Of a DNA stretch of 48,673 nt, positions 19,747-39,706 are shown piece by piece. Position numbers and translations under genes: made by a program. Positions within the stretch are counted from its first letter, which is position 1; the number at the start of each line of letters is the position of its first letter. The notes below the pieces were generated by a model. It saw only the letters and a list, made by a program, of their open reading frames with translations. It was not told the DNA's origin and ran no database searches. This DNA is from a virus. Location of the stretch: UHGV virus genome UHGV-0181052, one strand, 5' to 3'.

Positions 19747-20480
19747 TGTGTGATCTCCGGTAATAACTCATGCCGGAGGATACCAGTAATGCGCGGCTCA
19801 AGGTAAGTGCCGTACATCCTGTCGATGGTCGACTTACGATTCATGAGGTGGTGCATGATCATCCCGTCGCCGGTGTAGATCCCGCAGTGATTGCTCACGC
19901 TGGCGGCGATGCGGAATACCACCATATCGCCCGGCTCAGCCTCAGCCTTCTTGATAAATCCCGCTGCTGCAAAATTCTCGTCCGTGAAAAGCTCCTCTCC
20001 TTTCTCCCACCACGGGTACGGCTTGCGGAAGTCTGGCAACTGGATGCCGCGCGAACGGTGCCATGCCATCACCAGGCCGTAGCAGTCGGTAGCGCCCAGC
20101 ACGAAGTCACGACCCAGCAGCCCCTTCGGCTCCTCAAAGAATACCGCCATCTCATCCTTGTCCGGGGCGTAGATGAACCACGGCAAGCACGTCTCCTGCA
20201 TAAGCTGGCGATCGAGGATTGACGGATACGCCAGACCGTCGGCACCGGGATGCGAATGGATGACGGCCACGATGTTACCGGCGTCCTCAGCCTCAGCGAA
20301 GTCCTGCGGGGCAATGCGGAAGCTGTTCATTTTGTCGGCCGCTGAGTTGATGACCGGCCAGTATTCGAGGCCTCCACCTGAATCCACCAGAAGCCCGCAG
20401 CCCTCTTGCGGCGAACACTCAGTAAGATGTTGTTTAATATACGTTAATTGCTGTTCCGGGATGTCTTTTACGTCAATCAT
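19731..20480 (-). CDS. tail assembly protein (lambda gpK-like, MPN/JAB plus NlpC/P60 domains)
   Basis: Start moved to the ATG at 20480 with a GGAGG RBS. HSHP...D in the N-terminal half (JAB-like) and a C...H pattern in the C-terminal half. Confidence 0.8.
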   Translation of the reverse strand: MIDVKDIPEQQLTYIKQHLTECSPQEGCGLLVDSGGGLEYWPVINSAADKMNSFRIAPQDFAEAEDAGNIVAVIHSHPGADGLAYPSILDRQLMQETCLPWFIYAPDKDEMAVFFEEPKGLLGRDFVLGATDCYGLVMAWHRSRGIQLPDFRKPYPWWEKGEELFTDENFAAAGFIKKAEAEPGDMVVFRIAASVSNHCGIYTGDGMIMHHLMNRKSTIDRMYGTYLEPRITGILRHELLPEITQWETS

Positions 20481-20496
20481 TTTTGCCTCCACTTGG

Positions 20497-20556
20497 CACC
20501 ACCTGAAATTTTAAGCTATTGATTTAAAAGGCTGAATTTCAGGTGTTAGGTGGTAT
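20497..20556. repeat. inverted repeat carrying the CCACCTGAAATT box, upstream of gpK
   Basis: The 11-bp arms CACCTGAAATT (20500-20510) and AATTTCAGGTG (20535-20545) are separated by 24 nt. The reverse complement of 20535-20556 matches 37646-37667 at 21 of 22 positions. Confidence 0.6.
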
Positions 20557-20781
20557 GGGTTTATATATTTATTACCATAAATACATATAAGACATACCCA
20601 AGACCATATAAATAAAACTCCCTTGTGAGGGTTTTTATTATATATGGCTATGGGATGTATTCTTATCTTCGTGAATCGAAAACTACGGGCCTGAACGGCA
20701 CGCTGTCGCGTTTAACGCCGTCAGGCCATACGTTCGGACGTCTCAGCCACAAAAACGCCTCAGAACGCGTTACAGCGCGTT

Positions 20782-34751: not shown

Positions 34752-34767
34752 GATAGCAGTTGTCAGG

Positions 34768-34977
34768 CTATGAGAGCACGCGGAGGAATGCCGTGTACCG
34801 CGTGGCGATGTGCGCCACCCCTACCAGGAGGAAGACGGCCAGCACCAGCTTGGTGATCTGGCTGACCGGGTTAGCCTTGAGGCGTTCCCTGTCCATTGCC
34901 GCCATATGGATCGCGATCATCGCGACAGCTGTAACCAATGCCAACCACACACCCATTACGATCCCCATCATAACCAC
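34768..34977 (-). CDS. small membrane protein (2 predicted TM helices)
   Basis: 69 aa with two hydrophobic stretches. It lies between the coiled-coil gene and terL. Confidence 0.4.
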   Translation of the reverse strand: MVMMGIVMGVWLALVTAVAMIAIHMAAMDRERLKANPVSQITKLVLAVFLLVGVAHIATRYTAFLRVLS

Positions 34978-35055
34978 CTCGCTGTAAGCCTGATTAAAGC
35001 CTATCAGCCAGCCACTTCGGTAATCAACCGCCTAAATGGTACAAAGTGTAAGCAA

Positions 35056-35268
35056 TCAGACCAATCCGAAGGCCCGGATGAAGCCTGCTGCGATGAACGC
35101 CCAGCAAGACCAGTGGAACACGTCGCCAGCGATGCCGAAGGTTCGTGCCATCCTGAGCATACGCTTGTCACTTCCTGCGCCGATATCCAGGGCCACTGAC
35201 CAGCCTTTGCAGCAGAGGAAGCAGAGAAGGCAGAGAACGGCGCTAATGATTGGGTAGTACGTTTGCAT
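35056..35268 (-). CDS. small membrane protein (2 predicted TM helices)
   Basis: 70 aa: MQTYYPIISAVLCLLCFLCCKGW...WSCWAFIAAGFIRAFGLV. Confidence 0.4.
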   Translation of the reverse strand: MQTYYPIISAVLCLLCFLCCKGWSVALDIGAGSDKRMLRMARTFGIAGDVFHWSCWAFIAAGFIRAFGLV

Positions 35269-35282
35269 TGGGTAGCCTCATT

Positions 35283-35298
35283 GGCCCCCGTAGGGGCC
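35283..35298. repeat. GC hairpin GGCCCCCGTAGGGGCC between the coiled-coil gene and the membrane-protein gene (copy 2)
   Basis: Identical 16-mer (17-mer including the following G). Confidence 0.7.
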
Positions 35299-35308
35299 GG
35301 TAGGTGGA

Positions 35309-36910
35309 TTATTTGCGCATCTTCGAAAGGATATCAACAACTGCCTGATTCAGGTCTTTAATCTCATCCCTGATGACTTCACGGATGGCGGCCTTCATTT
35401 CGTCGCTGAACGTCACCTTGCTGGCCGGGATGCAGCCGTTCATGATCACCGCGCTATCCTTGACCATGGCCCAGCCACGAGCAGACGGCAGGACGTACTC
35501 CTTCACCGGCTCATTGCTCACAACTACATCGTCTTTCAGCTTGGTGACCTTCAACGTGCCGCACATGGTCTGCTGGCCGTCGATGTCCACCGTACTCACC
35601 TTCACCTTCGCCTTCACCAGCGAAAGCAGTTGCTCGTTCGTGTACACAACGGCGCAGGTGTCGGTGTAGCTCTTCGCCCACAGCACCCAGGCGTCGCGCT
35701 GTGCTGCGATGGCCTTCACGGTTGCTTCCAGCGTCTCAATACGCTCCTTGCGTTTCAGCATCACTGAGCCGATGGCCTTACGCTGCGCATCCATCGACAT
35801 ATTGGATGGTGAGCAGATGATGTCGTTTGCCCAGCTCTTCCAGTTGGTAAGCATCTTGTCCATCTGTTCAACTTCGTTTCGCAGTGCGTCGACCTTGCGC
35901 GCCTGACACTTCAACGTGTGTTGGTCAACGGCCGTTCCCGCTTTCAGGTCTTCGGCAAGCTGTTTGTAGTTGGCGATCTCCAGACCAGCGTCAGCCAGCT
36001 TGGTAGCCAGCTCGCGGTTCTCACCCTCAAGCAGGGTGATGCGTTGCAGCAGGGCGTTCTCCTGCGCCTCAGCGTGTGATCGAATGTTCGAATACACAGC
36101 CGCCGACTGCACAACCTCACCGTCTAACCGGCGCTTGAGGTCTGCGATCTGCAATCGTGCATTAGCCAGGCGCGTCACGACGTCATCCCGCTGCTTAGTC
36201 AGTGCCTGTGCGTCATTGGTGAGCGCAACGCAACGCCGTGCTGCTGCGCCCAGTTCGCGGCGGTAGTCGTCGGCGAGATGGGTCAGGCGCTCACGCTGCT
36301 TTTTCAGGTCGTTGACCTCACAGGCCAGTTGGTTAGCCTGCTGCCCGTTCTTGTCGCGCTGGCGCACCAGGTCGACGATGGTCTGATCGAGGTGCTCGGT
36401 GCGCTTTTTCAGGCTGTCGTTGGCTTCGTTCAGGGACTTGATTTCTTCCGCTGCGTTGCGGTTGAGGTTGATCACGCCTTCGCGTTCACTTTTCAGCCTG
36501 GCCGACTCGTTGCGAGACGACTCAATGGCCGCTTTCAGGATGATGCGCAGTTGATCGTCATTGGTGACGCTTGTCGGGTAGGTGACGAAGAAACGATCCA
36601 GGATGTGGCGGGTGAATGTGCGCCAGTCTTCCAACTTGCCAGCTGCAACACCGAGGTCTTCGGCGCGTTCGTCGAGGCGTCCCACAAGCGTCTCCTTCTC
36701 CTTCGCCAGCAACTCAACGGCGTCGGTCAGGGCACGCAGGGTGCCAACCTTGATCTTCACGTGCTGCTCGGTGCCACGGCCGTAAAGCTCGATGTCGATG
36801 ACCCTTGCGAGTCTGACGTTATTCTCAGTGCTGCCGCTGCTGTCTGCGCAAGCGAGAACGCCGCTAACTGGTGCCGGTGCCGGGGAGGTGAACTTTAATG
36901 ATTCAGTCAT
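35309..36910 (-). CDS. long coiled-coil protein (533 aa) of unknown function
   Basis: Central roughly 300 aa are heptad-rich (LKKRTEHLDQTIVDLVRQRDKNG...). The ends are globular. No ATPase motif. Confidence 0.6.
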   Translation of the reverse strand: MTESLKFTSPAPAPVSGVLACADSSGSTENNVRLARVIDIELYGRGTEQHVKIKVGTLRALTDAVELLAKEKETLVGRLDERAEDLGVAAGKLEDWRTFTRHILDRFFVTYPTSVTNDDQLRIILKAAIESSRNESARLKSEREGVINLNRNAAEEIKSLNEANDSLKKRTEHLDQTIVDLVRQRDKNGQQANQLACEVNDLKKQRERLTHLADDYRRELGAAARRCVALTNDAQALTKQRDDVVTRLANARLQIADLKRRLDGEVVQSAAVYSNIRSHAEAQENALLQRITLLEGENRELATKLADAGLEIANYKQLAEDLKAGTAVDQHTLKCQARKVDALRNEVEQMDKMLTNWKSWANDIICSPSNMSMDAQRKAIGSVMLKRKERIETLEATVKAIAAQRDAWVLWAKSYTDTCAVVYTNEQLLSLVKAKVKVSTVDIDGQQTMCGTLKVTKLKDDVVVSNEPVKEYVLPSARGWAMVKDSAVIMNGCIPASKVTFSDEMKAAIREVIRDEIKDLNQAVVDILSKMRK

Positions 36911-36987
36911 TTTGATGTCCTGTGCAGTAGGGGCAGGATTGCCCGGCCCCTATATTCCTGCGCAGTCATAGATATGTCAAGCAGTAT

Positions 36988-37485
36988 TTAGTCGTCACCC
37001 CAGTCGACCGCCTCGGACTCCTCGCGCGGCTTCTCCTCCTTCGGCCGCTCGCTGACGATCTTCAACCGCACCGGCTTGTTGGCGTCACCGGTCACGACGA
37101 TCTCAGTGTTGTCGCGGTAGCCGAAGTTCGCTTTCAGCATGAAGGTCGCGAAAGTACTGTTCGTGGCGAATCCAATATTCAGAATCATCTGCTCGTAAAG
37201 CTCGCGCGCCTGCGTGTAAGCGACAGCAAATTCCTTATGCTTCGAACGCCAGTCATGAAACGTCGTCGTCGTGATGCCGATGCTTTCACAGAAATTGAGA
37301 ATAGACGGCATGTGCTTCGGGTTGATGCGGATGTTGCTCTTACCGGCTGTCGTGTGTGAGTGCTGGATATAGTCATCAACGTCGACCCGGAAGTATTCAA
37401 GGAGTTTTTCCGGCATATCCTCGGTGTAACTGGTTGGTCTGCCGACTGGGTTCCGCGGTGTCGTCACCTTCACCTTGTCAGTCAT
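36988..37485 (-). CDS. terminase small subunit (putative)
   Basis: 165 aa, first gene of the leftward late unit, with an N-terminal HTH-like region and an acidic tail. The assignment rests partly on position. Confidence 0.55.
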   Translation of the reverse strand: MTDKVKVTTPRNPVGRPTSYTEDMPEKLLEYFRVDVDDYIQHSHTTAGKSNIRINPKHMPSILNFCESIGITTTTFHDWRSKHKEFAVAYTQARELYEQMILNIGFATNSTFATFMLKANFGYRDNTEIVVTGDANKPVRLKIVSERPKEEKPREESEAVDWGDD

Positions 37486-37549
37486 GTTGTTTTTCCTCTT
37501 TCAAGTGGCTCTGCCTCAGTTTACCCCTATACGGCATGGTGGGGAGAAT

Positions 37550-37582
37550 AAAAACGCGCAGCCACTGCGTAGCGCTTTTTTC
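37550..37582. terminator. GC-rich imperfect hairpin flanked by A5 and T6 (bidirectional terminator-like), upstream of terS
   Basis: AAAAACGCGCAGCCACTGCGTAGCGCTTTTTT. Confidence 0.35.
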
Positions 37583-37645
37583 TTCCCCCATGTGCGTAAG
37601 GGTGTACGTGTTTCTGTAATTATATGGGTTTTATATATAATAGGG

Positions 37646-37810
37646 ATACCACCTAACACCCGAAATTAATCCTTTCATATCAGTAGCTTGCGAACGTCAG
37701 GAAGTGAGGTGTTTCGACATCTCCACCTGAATTAATCCTTTCGCATCAATCACTTAGTATTTTCACCGCTCGAAGCACGGCAAAATGCCTCCACCCGAAA
37801 TATTGCTGAC
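37646..37810 (+). repeat. iteron-like direct repeats in the divergent control region (candidate origin of replication)
   Basis: Copy A GAAATTAATCCTTTCATATCA at 37662-37682. Copy B GAATTAATCCTTTCGCATCA at 37730-37749. Each is preceded by CCACCT. A third partial copy CCACCCGAAATATTGC lies at 37791-37806. Confidence 0.55.
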
Positions 37811-37989
37811 ACTGTACACGCACTTTTTGTGCTCAATTTGTGTACAGCGATTCTGTGGATAACTTTTCCCCAGTCGATTGATTTCACTGGAAAATATAAT
37901 ATTGATACGGGGGAGTCCCTATCTGTTGTGTTTACATACTGTATAAGCGCTCAAAGTCCTCCCTGTTTTCAGGTGGAAAGTAATTGCTA

Positions 37990-38021
37990 TTGACACGGTA
38001 TTACTCGCCGTTAATAATACC
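37990..38021 (+). promoter_or_regulatory. early promoter P_rep with dyad
   Basis: TTGACA 37990-37995, 16-17 nt, TAATAAT. The dyad is GGTATTA / TAATACC. The UTR ACCCGAACC is related to those of P1 and P2. Confidence 0.65.
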
Positions 38022-38044
38022 CGAACCAAATCAGGAGGAAAACG

Positions 38045-39706
38045 ATGAACGAAGAGAACAAAAGGCCGATGACGCCAGACGACTGGAAGGCGTTGCTGGG
38101 CGATCAGGAGAAACAGCACGAAGCGGCGGACATTCTCAACCAGCCGATGACCCGCGAGGAAGAGGACGAAGCCTACTCGCAGGAAATGGCCGATATGCAG
38201 GCGTACTTCGACCAGGTAGCACGTGCTGAGGTGGAGGCACTCGAACAGGAGGAAGATGTAGCGCCACCTGCTCCACCTGAACCACCTAAGCAGAAGAAGA
38301 AAGACGCCGGACAGCGCCACCTTGAGCTGCAACGCATCGTTCGCGAGGAGAATGAAAAGCAGAATCTCGGCATGGACTTATCCGCCCAGCGCGTTGAGGT
38401 GGCAAAGCGTCTCGCTGAGGAAGTCGAGCAGGGTCTGGTTGAAGATCCTGCACTGAAAGACTACGACCCGGGCGAGTACGTGCTGAACACCTCGCCGGAC
38501 TTCTACGACCCGGTGATCGAAGGCCTGCTGAACCGCCGAACCATCAACGAGATCAACGGTGATGCAGGCGCGGGCAAGACGACGCTGCTGGTGCAAATGG
38601 CCGTCAGCCTCGCCATGGGTCGACCGCTGTTCAACTGCTTCCGCGTGTGTAACCCGGGTGTCAGCGTGTTCTTCACCGAAGACCCGGACAGCGTCGAGTT
38701 GCAGGTGGCCGCCTGGTCGCTGCGCACTGGCGTGAATCTTCGCGACTGGATCAAGGTGTTCAAGCGGCCGGCCGATCTGATGGAGCCGGGTAAGCTGCGC
38801 ATCCAGAAGAGTCGCGTGTTGCAGTTCGCCAACGGCAGGCCGGTGAATCTGGTCATCTTCGACAGCAAAATGTTCCACCTGGCCGCAGCCAACAACAACG
38901 GCGTGAGCATGGACGAGAACAGCAACACCGACCAGCAGTTGATCACCACCGCCGGGCACCGGTTCGCTGAGTCCCTCAACTGCGCCGGGATCTTCATCCC
39001 GCACGTCAGCAAGGGAAGCCTGATGTCCGGCCAGTACGACCTTGAGTCTCGTGGTGGATCGGCAGCGAAGGGCGCGGTGTATAAAACGTTCAGCCTGGTG
39101 CGCGAGAAGACGCAGACCGGCAAGGGGTTGAACGCCCGCCAGAAGGAGACAGGCTACACTGTCCTGAACGTCGGCAAGAGCCGCCAGGGCGGGTTGAAGG
39201 GGCGCTTTAAGCTCAAAGGCTTTCAGGTGCCGGTATTCGCGAAGGACGTTGAGGCGAAGAAGAAAAGCACGTATGAGAAGAAGCTCGCACCGGGTCAGGA
39301 GGTCGATCGGCCAGACTTCATCTACATCGACGACGCCACGAAGGTATGGCTGTTCGAAGACCGCGTTTACGATATGGACGCCGGTTCAGAGGATGAGCAT
39401 TTTGAACCGGAAGAGAAGCGTCAGGCGCACGTGTACACGCCATTGCAGGAGGCTGTTTATTCGCTGCTGAGGGCTGAGCCGCATGGCACCGCGCCGTACA
39501 AGGAGATCCTGCACCGTATCAGCTCCACGGTGTTCAAGGCCGACGGCTCGCCGTATTCCCGGGAGTCAGTGCGCGACGCAATTTACAAAATGGCTGAGCT
39601 GGGGCACCTGAGCAAAGAGGCTAACCCACACGAAGCCCGTAACCCGTATTACACGATCAAAGATGCCGTTCCCCCGCTGATGGGTAGCTGCCGTGATAAC
39701 CACTGA
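38045..39706 (+). CDS. replication protein: RecA-like (AAA_25 / DnaB-type) ATPase with C-terminal winged-helix domain
   Basis: Walker A NGDAGAGKTTLLVQMA, Walker B VNLVIFDS. The C-terminal wHTH-like region is YSLLRAEPHGTAPYKEILHRI. The gene is driven by the P_rep promoter and preceded by iteron-like repeats. Confidence 0.75.
   Translation: MNEENKRPMTPDDWKALLGDQEKQHEAADILNQPMTREEEDEAYSQEMADMQAYFDQVARAEVEALEQEEDVAPPAPPEPPKQKKKDAGQRHLELQRIVREENEKQNLGMDLSAQRVEVAKRLAEEVEQGLVEDPALKDYDPGEYVLNTSPDFYDPVIEGLLNRRTINEINGDAGAGKTTLLVQMAVSLAMGRPLFNCFRVCNPGVSVFFTEDPDSVELQVAAWSLRTGVNLRDWIKVFKRPADLMEPGKLRIQKSRVLQFANGRPVNLVIFDSKMFHLAAANNNGVSMDENSNTDQQLITTAGHRFAESLNCAGIFIPHVSKGSLMSGQYDLESRGGSAAKGAVYKTFSLVREKTQTGKGLNARQKETGYTVLNVGKSRQGGLKGRFKLKGFQVPVFAKDVEAKKKSTYEKKLAPGQEVDRPDFIYIDDATKVWLFEDRVYDMDAGSEDEHFEPEEKRQAHVYTPLQEAVYSLLRAEPHGTAPYKEILHRISSTVFKADGSPYSRESVRDAIYKMAELGHLSKEANPHEARNPYYTIKDAVPPLMGSCRDNH

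Follow-up and report, generated by a model that had tools for sequence, protein, structure and literature searches.

Where does replication begin in a phage that carries helicase and primase genes yet no DNA polymerase? The question arises at the gap between terS and rep (37486-38044) in UHGV-0181052. This stretch of 48,673 nucleotides, hereafter the window, is a complete 48.7-kb genome (58% G+C) from the unclassified vB_Kp3 / HBM00 / MUC-5 group of virulent (lytic) Klebsiella siphophages. The replication genes of the group encode a 553-aa AAA_25 protein (Rep), a 167-aa Zn-ribbon primase, an SF2 helicase, SSB, Erf and ExoVIII, and no DNA polymerase gene is present in the group. Because helicase, Zn-ribbon primase, SSB, Erf and ExoVIII are all encoded without a polymerase, a phage-specific initiator is to be expected. 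Published accounts of these phages (HSE3, EKq1 and the MED16 comparison) describe gene modules only, and none mentions an origin. A first-pass annotation had proposed the gap as a candidate origin, citing iteron-like repeats beside an initiator-like gene. Our comparison of related sequences suggests that the gap is probably a replication origin and control region. We put at about 0.5 the probability that Rep is a self-loading initiator helicase whose winged helix reads 10-11-bp boxes of the origin and of an autoregulatory region. The earlier origin idea is strengthened, and its repeats are recast as composites of a Rep box and a site for integration host factor (IHF) within a larger, two-locus system.

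The gap is a divergence point: the late operon (terS, terL, head and tail genes) runs leftward from it, and the early operon, which opens with rep, runs rightward. Its features, with the two flanking genes, are as follows.

36988..37485, minus strand: terS, 165 aa, first gene of the leftward late operon (Pfam GP3_package, E = 1.1e-11)
37499..37508, plus strand: box copy TTTCAAGTGG with one mismatch, directly next to the terS Shine-Dalgarno sequence
37523..37603, no strand assigned: imperfect palindrome of 80 bp; its core, 37550-37582, is a bidirectional hairpin resembling an intrinsic terminator
37603..37648, no strand assigned: AT-rich tract ending in TTTTATATATAAT, a candidate DNA-unwinding element or, alternatively, a -10-like element
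37649..37666, plus strand: box 1, CCACCTAACACCCGAAAT
37678..37690, plus strand: IHF-like site 1, TATCAGTAGCTTG, 12/13 to the consensus WATCAANNNNTTR
37723..37733, plus strand: box 2, CCACCTGAATT
37744..37756, plus strand: IHF-like site 2, CATCAATCACTTA, 12/13
37791..37801, plus strand: box 3, CCACCCGAAAT
37854..37862, minus strand: perfect DnaA box TTATCCACA, the sole TTWTNCACA match in the 48.7-kb genome
37967..37976, plus strand: inverted box 4, TTTCAGGTGG, 13 bp upstream of the -35 element of the rep promoter (P_rep) and a candidate autoregulatory site
37990..38018, plus strand: P_rep, TTGACA-17-AATAAT, 11/12 matches, conserved in relatives; ribosome-binding site AGGAGG at 38033-38038
38045..39706, plus strand: rep, 553 aa, RepA-like AAA_25 helicase core with a C-terminal winged helix (Pfam AAA_25, E = 1.4e-16)
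39434..39664, plus strand: winged-helix coding region of rep (aa 464-540; helix 3 is aa 506-518)

The first-pass annotation had described two 20-21-nt direct repeats, each preceded by CCACCT, and a third partial copy. The pair is present (GAAATTAATCCTTTCATATCA at 37662-37682 and GAATTAATCCTTTCGCATCA at 37729-37748, 67 bp apart), as is the partial copy (CCACCCGAAATATTGC at 37791-37806). A repeat search aligns the pair over 26 nt at 81% identity, and an ungapped repeat this good arose in 1 of 300 dinucleotide shuffles. CCACCT does precede both repeats, but at unequal distances (7 nt and 0 nt), and the true register sets CACCCGAAAT (37657) against CACCTGAAT (37724). Each ‘20-nt iteron’ is in fact a composite: its left half is a 10-11-bp box, CCACCYGAAAT, and its right half, preceded by an A/T tract, agrees with the IHF consensus in 12 of 13 positions. 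Five such boxes lie in mixed orientation over 480 bp, at 37499, at 37657, 37724 and 37792 (direct, at spacings of 67 and 68 bp) and at 37967 (inverted). Repeat searches found no tandem array of 17-22-bp direct iterons in helical phase. The repeats are real boxes of a protein-binding type, joined in composites with an IHF-like site; the boxes number five and are of mixed orientation, and the module has a second copy in the tail operon. The proposed theta-type layout survives in the AT-rich tract, the IHF-consensus sites and the DnaA box beside the boxes, but not as an iteron array of the plasmid type. Taken alone, the number of 9-10-mers of the box family in this one sequence lacks significance (it is equalled in 24/300 and 15/300 shuffles); the weight of the case falls on comparative data.

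The window matches 38 phage records, with HBM00 as the top DNA match (96%), and no plasmid record. The layout is kept in seven box classes, namely the window (alleles A, B and D), KPAJ1, EKq1/PMBT64/HSE3, ATCEA85/JVSB2, K70, L032/L033 and L036. Each class carries 4-9 copies of its own box at equivalent positions, and the shared order is box, palindrome, AT-rich tract ending in ATATATA(T)AA, box, IHF site, boxes, and a last box before the -35 element. More distant relatives with the same order have Rep proteins from 87% down to 57% identical. The window-type box, in its oligonucleotide form, is CCACCTGAAAT, the counterpart of the EKq1-type box that heads the following list of boxes in other classes.

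TTCCGCGAAAT: EKq1, PMBT64 and HSE3
CTTCCGAAAT: ATCEA85 and JVSB2
TTACGCGAAAT: K70
CTACAYGCGAAAT: L032 and L033
CCCTCGAAAT: L036

A group-specific box occupies intergenic coordinates 10-18, the terS-leader position, in alleles B, JVSB2, K70, L032 and L033, and a box of the genome’s own type lies just upstream of the P_rep -35 element in every group. Boxes 1, 2 and 3 are spaced by 67 and 68 bp in the window and by 67 and 69 bp in L036. The position of IHF site 1 carries a perfect consensus in KPAJ1, ATCEA85, K70 and L036, and that of site 2 does so in alleles B, C and D and in EKq1/PMBT64. A DnaA box stands at the equivalent place in JVSB2 and L036 (perfect) and in K70 (as the variant TTATTCACA). 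The first-pass annotation had named conservation of the repeats in relatives as a check on its proposal; their positions are kept across groups, and their sequence changes along with the winged helix of Rep. Wider sampling of the Rep family in IMG/VR and metagenomes added only six more loci.

Outside the intergenic region the class-specific box turns up almost exclusively at a single further locus in each genome examined. This locus is a gap within the tail operon, where the box is again accompanied by an IHF site and an AT-rich tract. Across these genomes the gap is 180-380 bp of non-coding DNA, which contains the genome’s most AT-rich tract, a hairpin of the terminator type and a perfect IHF site. 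Boxes at the two loci, 17 kb apart, have switched together in five lineages, among them KPAJ1, EKq1, JVSB2 and K70. From this joint change we infer that the boxes must, as far as sequence comparison can tell, be read by a phage-encoded DNA-binding protein of switching specificity. In the window the second locus has the following form.

20499..20636, minus strand: second module, a non-coding gap in the tail operon, ~17 kb from the intergenic region
37604..37689, plus strand: 86-bp module of AT-rich tract, box and IHF-like site, with a copy in inverted orientation at 20513-20597

The second module runs from a terminator hairpin (20611-20636) through an AT-rich tract to a box (CCACCTAACACCTGAAAT, 20536-20553), an IHF site (20512-20524) and an inverted box (20499-20509), and a further box lies nearby at 20374-20382; the minus-strand gap at 20370-20660 contains three CCACCTGAA boxes. 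Local alignment of 37604-37689 (plus strand) with 20597-20513 (minus strand) scores 63, against 16.3 +/- 2.5 and a maximum of 26 for shuffled sequences. The hairpin sequence here differs from the intergenic palindrome, and the module lies 20 bp upstream of a tail gene. It contains the most AT-rich tract of the genome and the only perfect IHF consensus; together the two modules hold the two most AT-rich tracts, the sole DnaA box and that sole perfect IHF site. The boxes are confined to these two loci, and no further promoter region has them. The cumulative GC skew has its peak at ~19-20 kb, near the second module, without a change in the direction of transcription, and this may be a composition effect of the gene for a 3355-aa tail protein.

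Which protein reads the boxes? The first-pass annotation had nominated the AAA_25 ATPase with a winged-helix tail as initiator, and both parts of that description hold, with a Pfam match for the core and a predicted fold for the tail. Foldseek places the Rep core among RecA, DnaB, KaiC and RepA folds (RSF1010 RepA, 1g8y, TMt 0.57), and helicase activity is predicted. RSF1010 RepA, a weak match to Rep in sequence, is the closest relative of the motor in both sequence and fold. An AlphaFold model predicts the C-terminal winged helix with a predicted local distance difference test (pLDDT) score of 80-94 and the topology H-S-H-H-S-S, and Foldseek matches it to the winged-helix DNA complexes of MarR, SarA and FoxO (root-mean-square deviation 1.5-2.3 A). 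Residues 508, 511 and 514 lie on one face of helix 3. They are S508, D511 and Y514 in three classes with boxes of the YC[CT]GAAAT type (a pyrimidine before CGAAAT or TGAAAT), and A-K-A, A-A-S or G-S-Q in three classes with CGCGAAAT boxes. The three residues thus follow box type in six classes, which correspond to about two independent evolutionary events. This covariation is suggestive of Rep as the box reader. For L036, box type was forecast from helix 3 ahead of any look at the DNA sequence, and the forecast proved right. A distinction between box classes A and C was also tried as a test of specificity; it failed, as L031 mixes both.

The pattern of box types cuts across overall relatedness, as EKq1 shows best. 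In the helicase core of Rep it is the closest relative, with 98-100% amino-acid identity to the window; its winged helix is 62-70% identical, its intergenic region has been replaced, and its boxes have switched at both loci. Over aa 401-553 of EKq1 Rep (L024) synonymous-site identity to the window is 0.49-0.61 versus 0.66-0.86 in the core, and this lower C-terminal value indicates a mosaic junction inside rep, to judge from the codons compared.

Other candidate readers fare less well. HBM00 and KPAJ1 share an allele of the TerS N-domain that is ~20 residues off that of the window, yet HBM00 has the boxes of the window. The recognition helix of a Cro-like 67-aa regulator (HTH_3, XRE-type) follows phylogeny, with the window resembling EKq1, and not box type; a NinH-like 78-aa protein likewise follows the overall phylogeny (window with EKq1). 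A 219-aa early protein shows discordant divergence like that of the Rep tail, but is absent from K70, which keeps the system.

CCACCT also occurs inside rep, where three tandem CCACCT(N3) units (38264-38290) encode a Pro-rich linker, APPAPPEPP, with CCACCT again at 38229, 38317 and 38397. These units could be extra Rep sites or merely Pro-Pro codons. As an intragenic origin of the kind in lambda O they were rejected: KPJD2 and KPAJ1, whose linker is of another allele, lack them.

An alignment of nine close relatives divides the intergenic region into three parts. The first, 37486-37656, comprises the terS Shine-Dalgarno sequence, the palindrome and the AT-rich tract and is a 171-bp block of 98.5% identity, against 85.5% in the adjoining terS codons. 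In the second (37691-37966) identity falls to 60%, two or three unrelated alleles forming a mosaic, and the third (37967-38044), which includes P_rep, is conserved again. The hairpin, the AT-rich tract and the strong P_rep listed by the first-pass annotation were all recovered where it had placed them. Terminator-like matches at 37556-37570 on both strands place a G+C-rich stem-loop between an A-run and a T-run, so that a terminator is predicted in either direction, and the palindrome has a folding z-score of -2.4 on either strand. The hairpin stem is kept in seven phage groups with four compensatory pairs, and EKq1 has its own compensated version. Searches of viral and genome collections with an 18-mer of the hairpin returned chance matches only, and Rfam covariance models run against the conserved block gave two chance-level matches (E = 7 and 7.7), far below gathering scores. 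The 40-bp window from 37603 is 78% A+T and ranks second among the 40-60-bp windows of the genome in A+T content; its ATATATA(T)AA core and the 18-20-bp distance from there to GAAAT are kept in all groups and at both loci. P_rep is the only sigma-70-like match within 36900-38300, and no convincing sigma-70 promoter was found in the leftward (late) direction.

The conserved block also bears on the annotation of terS. Many relatives annotate a 200-aa terS with an ATG inside the palindrome; in the window this frame is broken by a 1-nt difference in a T-run at 37490. We rejected the 35-codon N-terminal extension as coding sequence, as the window does not keep its frame and its 98.5% identity shows no variation of a codon-like kind, and the 200-aa annotation is probably a mis-annotation. 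The variable part of the gap has further symmetries: two more inverted repeats, at 37812-37847 (CTGTACAC...GTGTACAG) and 37865-37895 (TTTTCCCCAGT...ACTGGAAAA), and a palindrome, GGGGGAGTCCC at 37909-37919, which allele-A relatives retain, as does the distant L036 phage (GGGGGAGTCCCC), and which may be a site for another factor.

Several of these observations count against an origin read by Rep. The correlation of helix 3 with box type is weakened by resting on about two independent events, and the mixture of A and C variants within L031 means that box position 2 does not discriminate. The most conserved stretch, 37486-37656, has one degenerate box only, so that Rep binding leaves its constraint unexplained, and an origin would not ordinarily place a box on the terS leader. 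Boxes of 10-11 bp that lie 67-68 bp apart in mixed orientation are unlike tandem 20-bp iterons, alleles B, D and E lack the DnaA box, no clear sign of an origin appears in the GC skew at 37.6 kb, and the literature on this phage group yielded no Rep-box binding or replication data. Finally, both modules are preceded by a terminator and have TATATAA at a fixed distance from a box, an arrangement that suits regulated promoters too. In the main rival reading the boxes would be transcription operators only, through which Rep (by its winged helix) or another phage-specific regulator, with IHF, shuts P_rep and controls promoters or terminators at the beginning and middle of the late operon, as an early-to-late switch, neither module being an origin. 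The boxes do stand beside the P_rep -35 element and on the terS leader, a terminator hairpin precedes both modules, both stand before late genes, the -10-like ATATATA(T)AA is fixed 18-20 bp from a box at both, the second module lies 20 bp before a tail gene in an operon that needs read-through or re-initiation, and the phage also encodes an XRE-type regulator. Yet no acceptable -35 element accompanies the TATATAA elements, no leftward sigma-70 promoter was found, and the intergenic module faces rep rather than the late genes. The boxes are found at two loci alone and beside none of the other promoters, the XRE regulator has a recognition helix that does not follow box type, and the AT-rich extremes, IHF sites and DnaA box are hallmarks of origins. 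We consider operators without an origin doubtful, though deserving of serious weight; the proposal overlaps with autoregulation by Rep, and to that extent the transcriptional and origin readings overlap and are compatible.

Packaging offers another explanation, since terS adjoins the region and the first-pass annotation had suggested that it might contain the pac site. Here the gap would be a pac or cos site resembling lambda cosB, with TerS-binding repeats split by IHF sites and the invariant 171-bp block serving for cleavage or recognition. Lambda cosB has an R3-I1-R2 arrangement of repeats and an IHF site, which the box-IHF-box arrangement resembles; 37486-37656 is 98.5% conserved; and the EKq1 record, after PhageTerm analysis, starts 20 nt upstream of terS. 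(The sole published remark on termini in the group is the PhageTerm ‘DTR of 8,798 bp’, a direct terminal repeat, for EKq1.) Against this, the N-domain alleles of TerS do not follow the boxes, and the boxes recur in the tail operon and beside the P_rep -35 element. TerS belongs, moreover, to the family of P22 gp3. In that family the pac site is internal to terS, and in P22 it sits mid-gene. A single laboratory contributed three records (vB_KPJD2, vB_KPLY1 and vB_KPAJ1) that begin and end within terS codon 83/84 (~37236-37238), a break that may mark the packaging start; because of the P22-type TerS and these three records, a pac site inside terS is hinted at. A pac site defined by the repeats is therefore very unlikely, although one may lie within the invariant block 37486-37656 itself. 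Record ends shared by many relatives at ~37591 were rejected as physical (cos) genome ends, being mere re-orientation to the over-long terS annotation. A rolling-circle origin, the other alternative raised by the first-pass annotation, finds no footing: no HUH domain was found in Rep or neighbouring proteins, nor in the genome annotation of relatives, so the nickase is lacking, and the helicase is RepA-like. That the repeats are chance similarities or a decaying, non-functional duplication is scarcely credible. In its favour, the box family is not significantly frequent within the single sequence, and AT-rich DNA should yield two 12/13 IHF-like matches by chance; but the chance reading is contradicted by the comparative data, in which box positions are kept over seven diverged groups while the sequence switches and boxes covary at two loci 17 kb apart, and the direct repeat was equalled in 1/300 shuffles.

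We return to the reading of the gap as an origin served by Rep. Starting from what is directly established, that is, the anatomy, its conservation, the covariation of boxes at two loci, the winged-helix fold prediction and the correlation of boxes with helix 3, we infer binding of Rep to the boxes and of IHF and DnaA to their sites, as well as melting of the DNA and the start of replication at the intergenic region. Rep, a RecA-fold motor of the RepA type, would bind the CCACCYGAAAT boxes through its C-terminal winged helix. Interleaved with two IHF sites, the five boxes across the terS-rep region would be folded by IHF bending into one nucleoprotein complex beside the AT-rich tract, which would melt and receive the helicase; DnaA may assist in alleles with a DnaA box. 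Host Pol III and the small Zn-ribbon primase of the phage would then start theta-type replication. Occupancy of the box beside the P_rep -35 element would autoregulate rep, as in iteron plasmids, and the terS-leader box with the bidirectional terminator might insulate or couple late transcription. We conjecture that the tail-operon module is either a further origin or, like P4 crr, a cis-acting enhancer. A bolder and rather improbable extension is that one initiator serves two inverted, IHF-bent modules 17 kb apart, that its occupancy of the boxes on the terS leader, at the rep promoter and ahead of the distal tail genes couples replication to the early-to-late transcription switch, and that the repeated switching of specificity defines ‘incompatibility types’ of the replicon.

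Among known systems, the alpha protein of satellite phage P4, which acts at ori and crr, reportedly combines a helicase with a C-terminal winged-helix origin-binding domain (studies of Ziegelin and Lanka; structure PDB 1KA8). Common to P4 and the proposed scheme are a helicase and a C-terminal winged helix in one protein, short repeats (8-11 bp) at two separate cis sites (ori and crr in P4) and synthesis by host Pol III. P4 alpha differs in having an SF3/D5-like helicase with a fused primase, where the window has a RecA-fold, AAA_25/RepA-like motor and a separate gene for a Zn-ribbon primase; IHF sites, a DnaA box and terminators are features of the window that are not known to belong to the P4 system. 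1KA8 was not among the top Foldseek matches of the Rep winged helix. The oriV of RSF1010 (RepA, RepB' and RepC) provides the closest relative of the helicase core (1g8y) and the same order of elements, repeats, then an AT-rich tract, then a large palindrome. The RSF1010 palindrome holds the ssiA/ssiB priming signals. Unlike RSF1010, the window has no RepC, its DNA-binding domain is fused to the helicase, its primase is unrelated to RepB', and its palindrome looks like an ordinary bidirectional terminator. In lambda cosB (R3-I1-R2-R1), beside Nu1, repeated protein sites with an IHF site between them likewise lie immediately before the gene for the small terminase; the boxes described here, by contrast, do not follow TerS, recur in the genome and reach the rep promoter.

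Iteron plasmids such as pSC101, R6K gamma, P1 oriR and F resemble the proposed scheme in having a winged-helix initiator, repeated boxes with an adjacent AT-rich unwinding element, IHF and DnaA sites, and an inverted copy at the initiator promoter for autorepression (PMC4980987). Their Rep protein, however, is not a helicase and recruits DnaB, and their iterons are 17-22 bp long, in tandem at ~22-bp phasing, in contrast to boxes of 10-11 bp at 67-68 bp in mixed orientation. SaPI Rep and Cch2 of SCCmec are helicases that recognise iterons through a C-terminal domain (PMC7581432). They share with the proposed scheme a self-loading initiator helicase, origin specificity conferred by the C-terminal domain, short repeats near an AT-rich region close to rep, and specificity classes that switch between related elements. 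The differences are that their origin lies directly downstream of rep, whereas the boxes here lie upstream, in a divergent promoter region, and 17 kb away; that the helicase families differ; and that the host here is Gram-negative, with IHF and DnaA consensus sites.

The packaging module next to the gap has an unusual insertion. In the window terS and terL are split by a 533-aa coiled-coil protein and two small hydrophobic open reading frames (34760-36910), and in other records the coiled-coil protein is labelled a ‘methyl-accepting chemotaxis protein’.

Klebsiella phages of this group are collected for therapy, and the available papers list their gene modules only, leaving replication and gene control undescribed. 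If the pairing of origin and initiator is true, it would provide an engineering handle for minimal replicons and for control of copy number or host range, and would account for the joint exchange of the intergenic region and the Rep tail between relatives. Rep would add a RecA-fold/AAA_25 case to the few self-loading initiator helicases (P4 alpha, SaPI Rep and Cch2), and the matched classes of box and helix 3 form a natural specificity series for re-targeting winged helices. The tail-operon module, finally, poses a testable question: it may initiate replication as a second origin, act as an enhancer in the manner of crr, or connect replication with late transcription.

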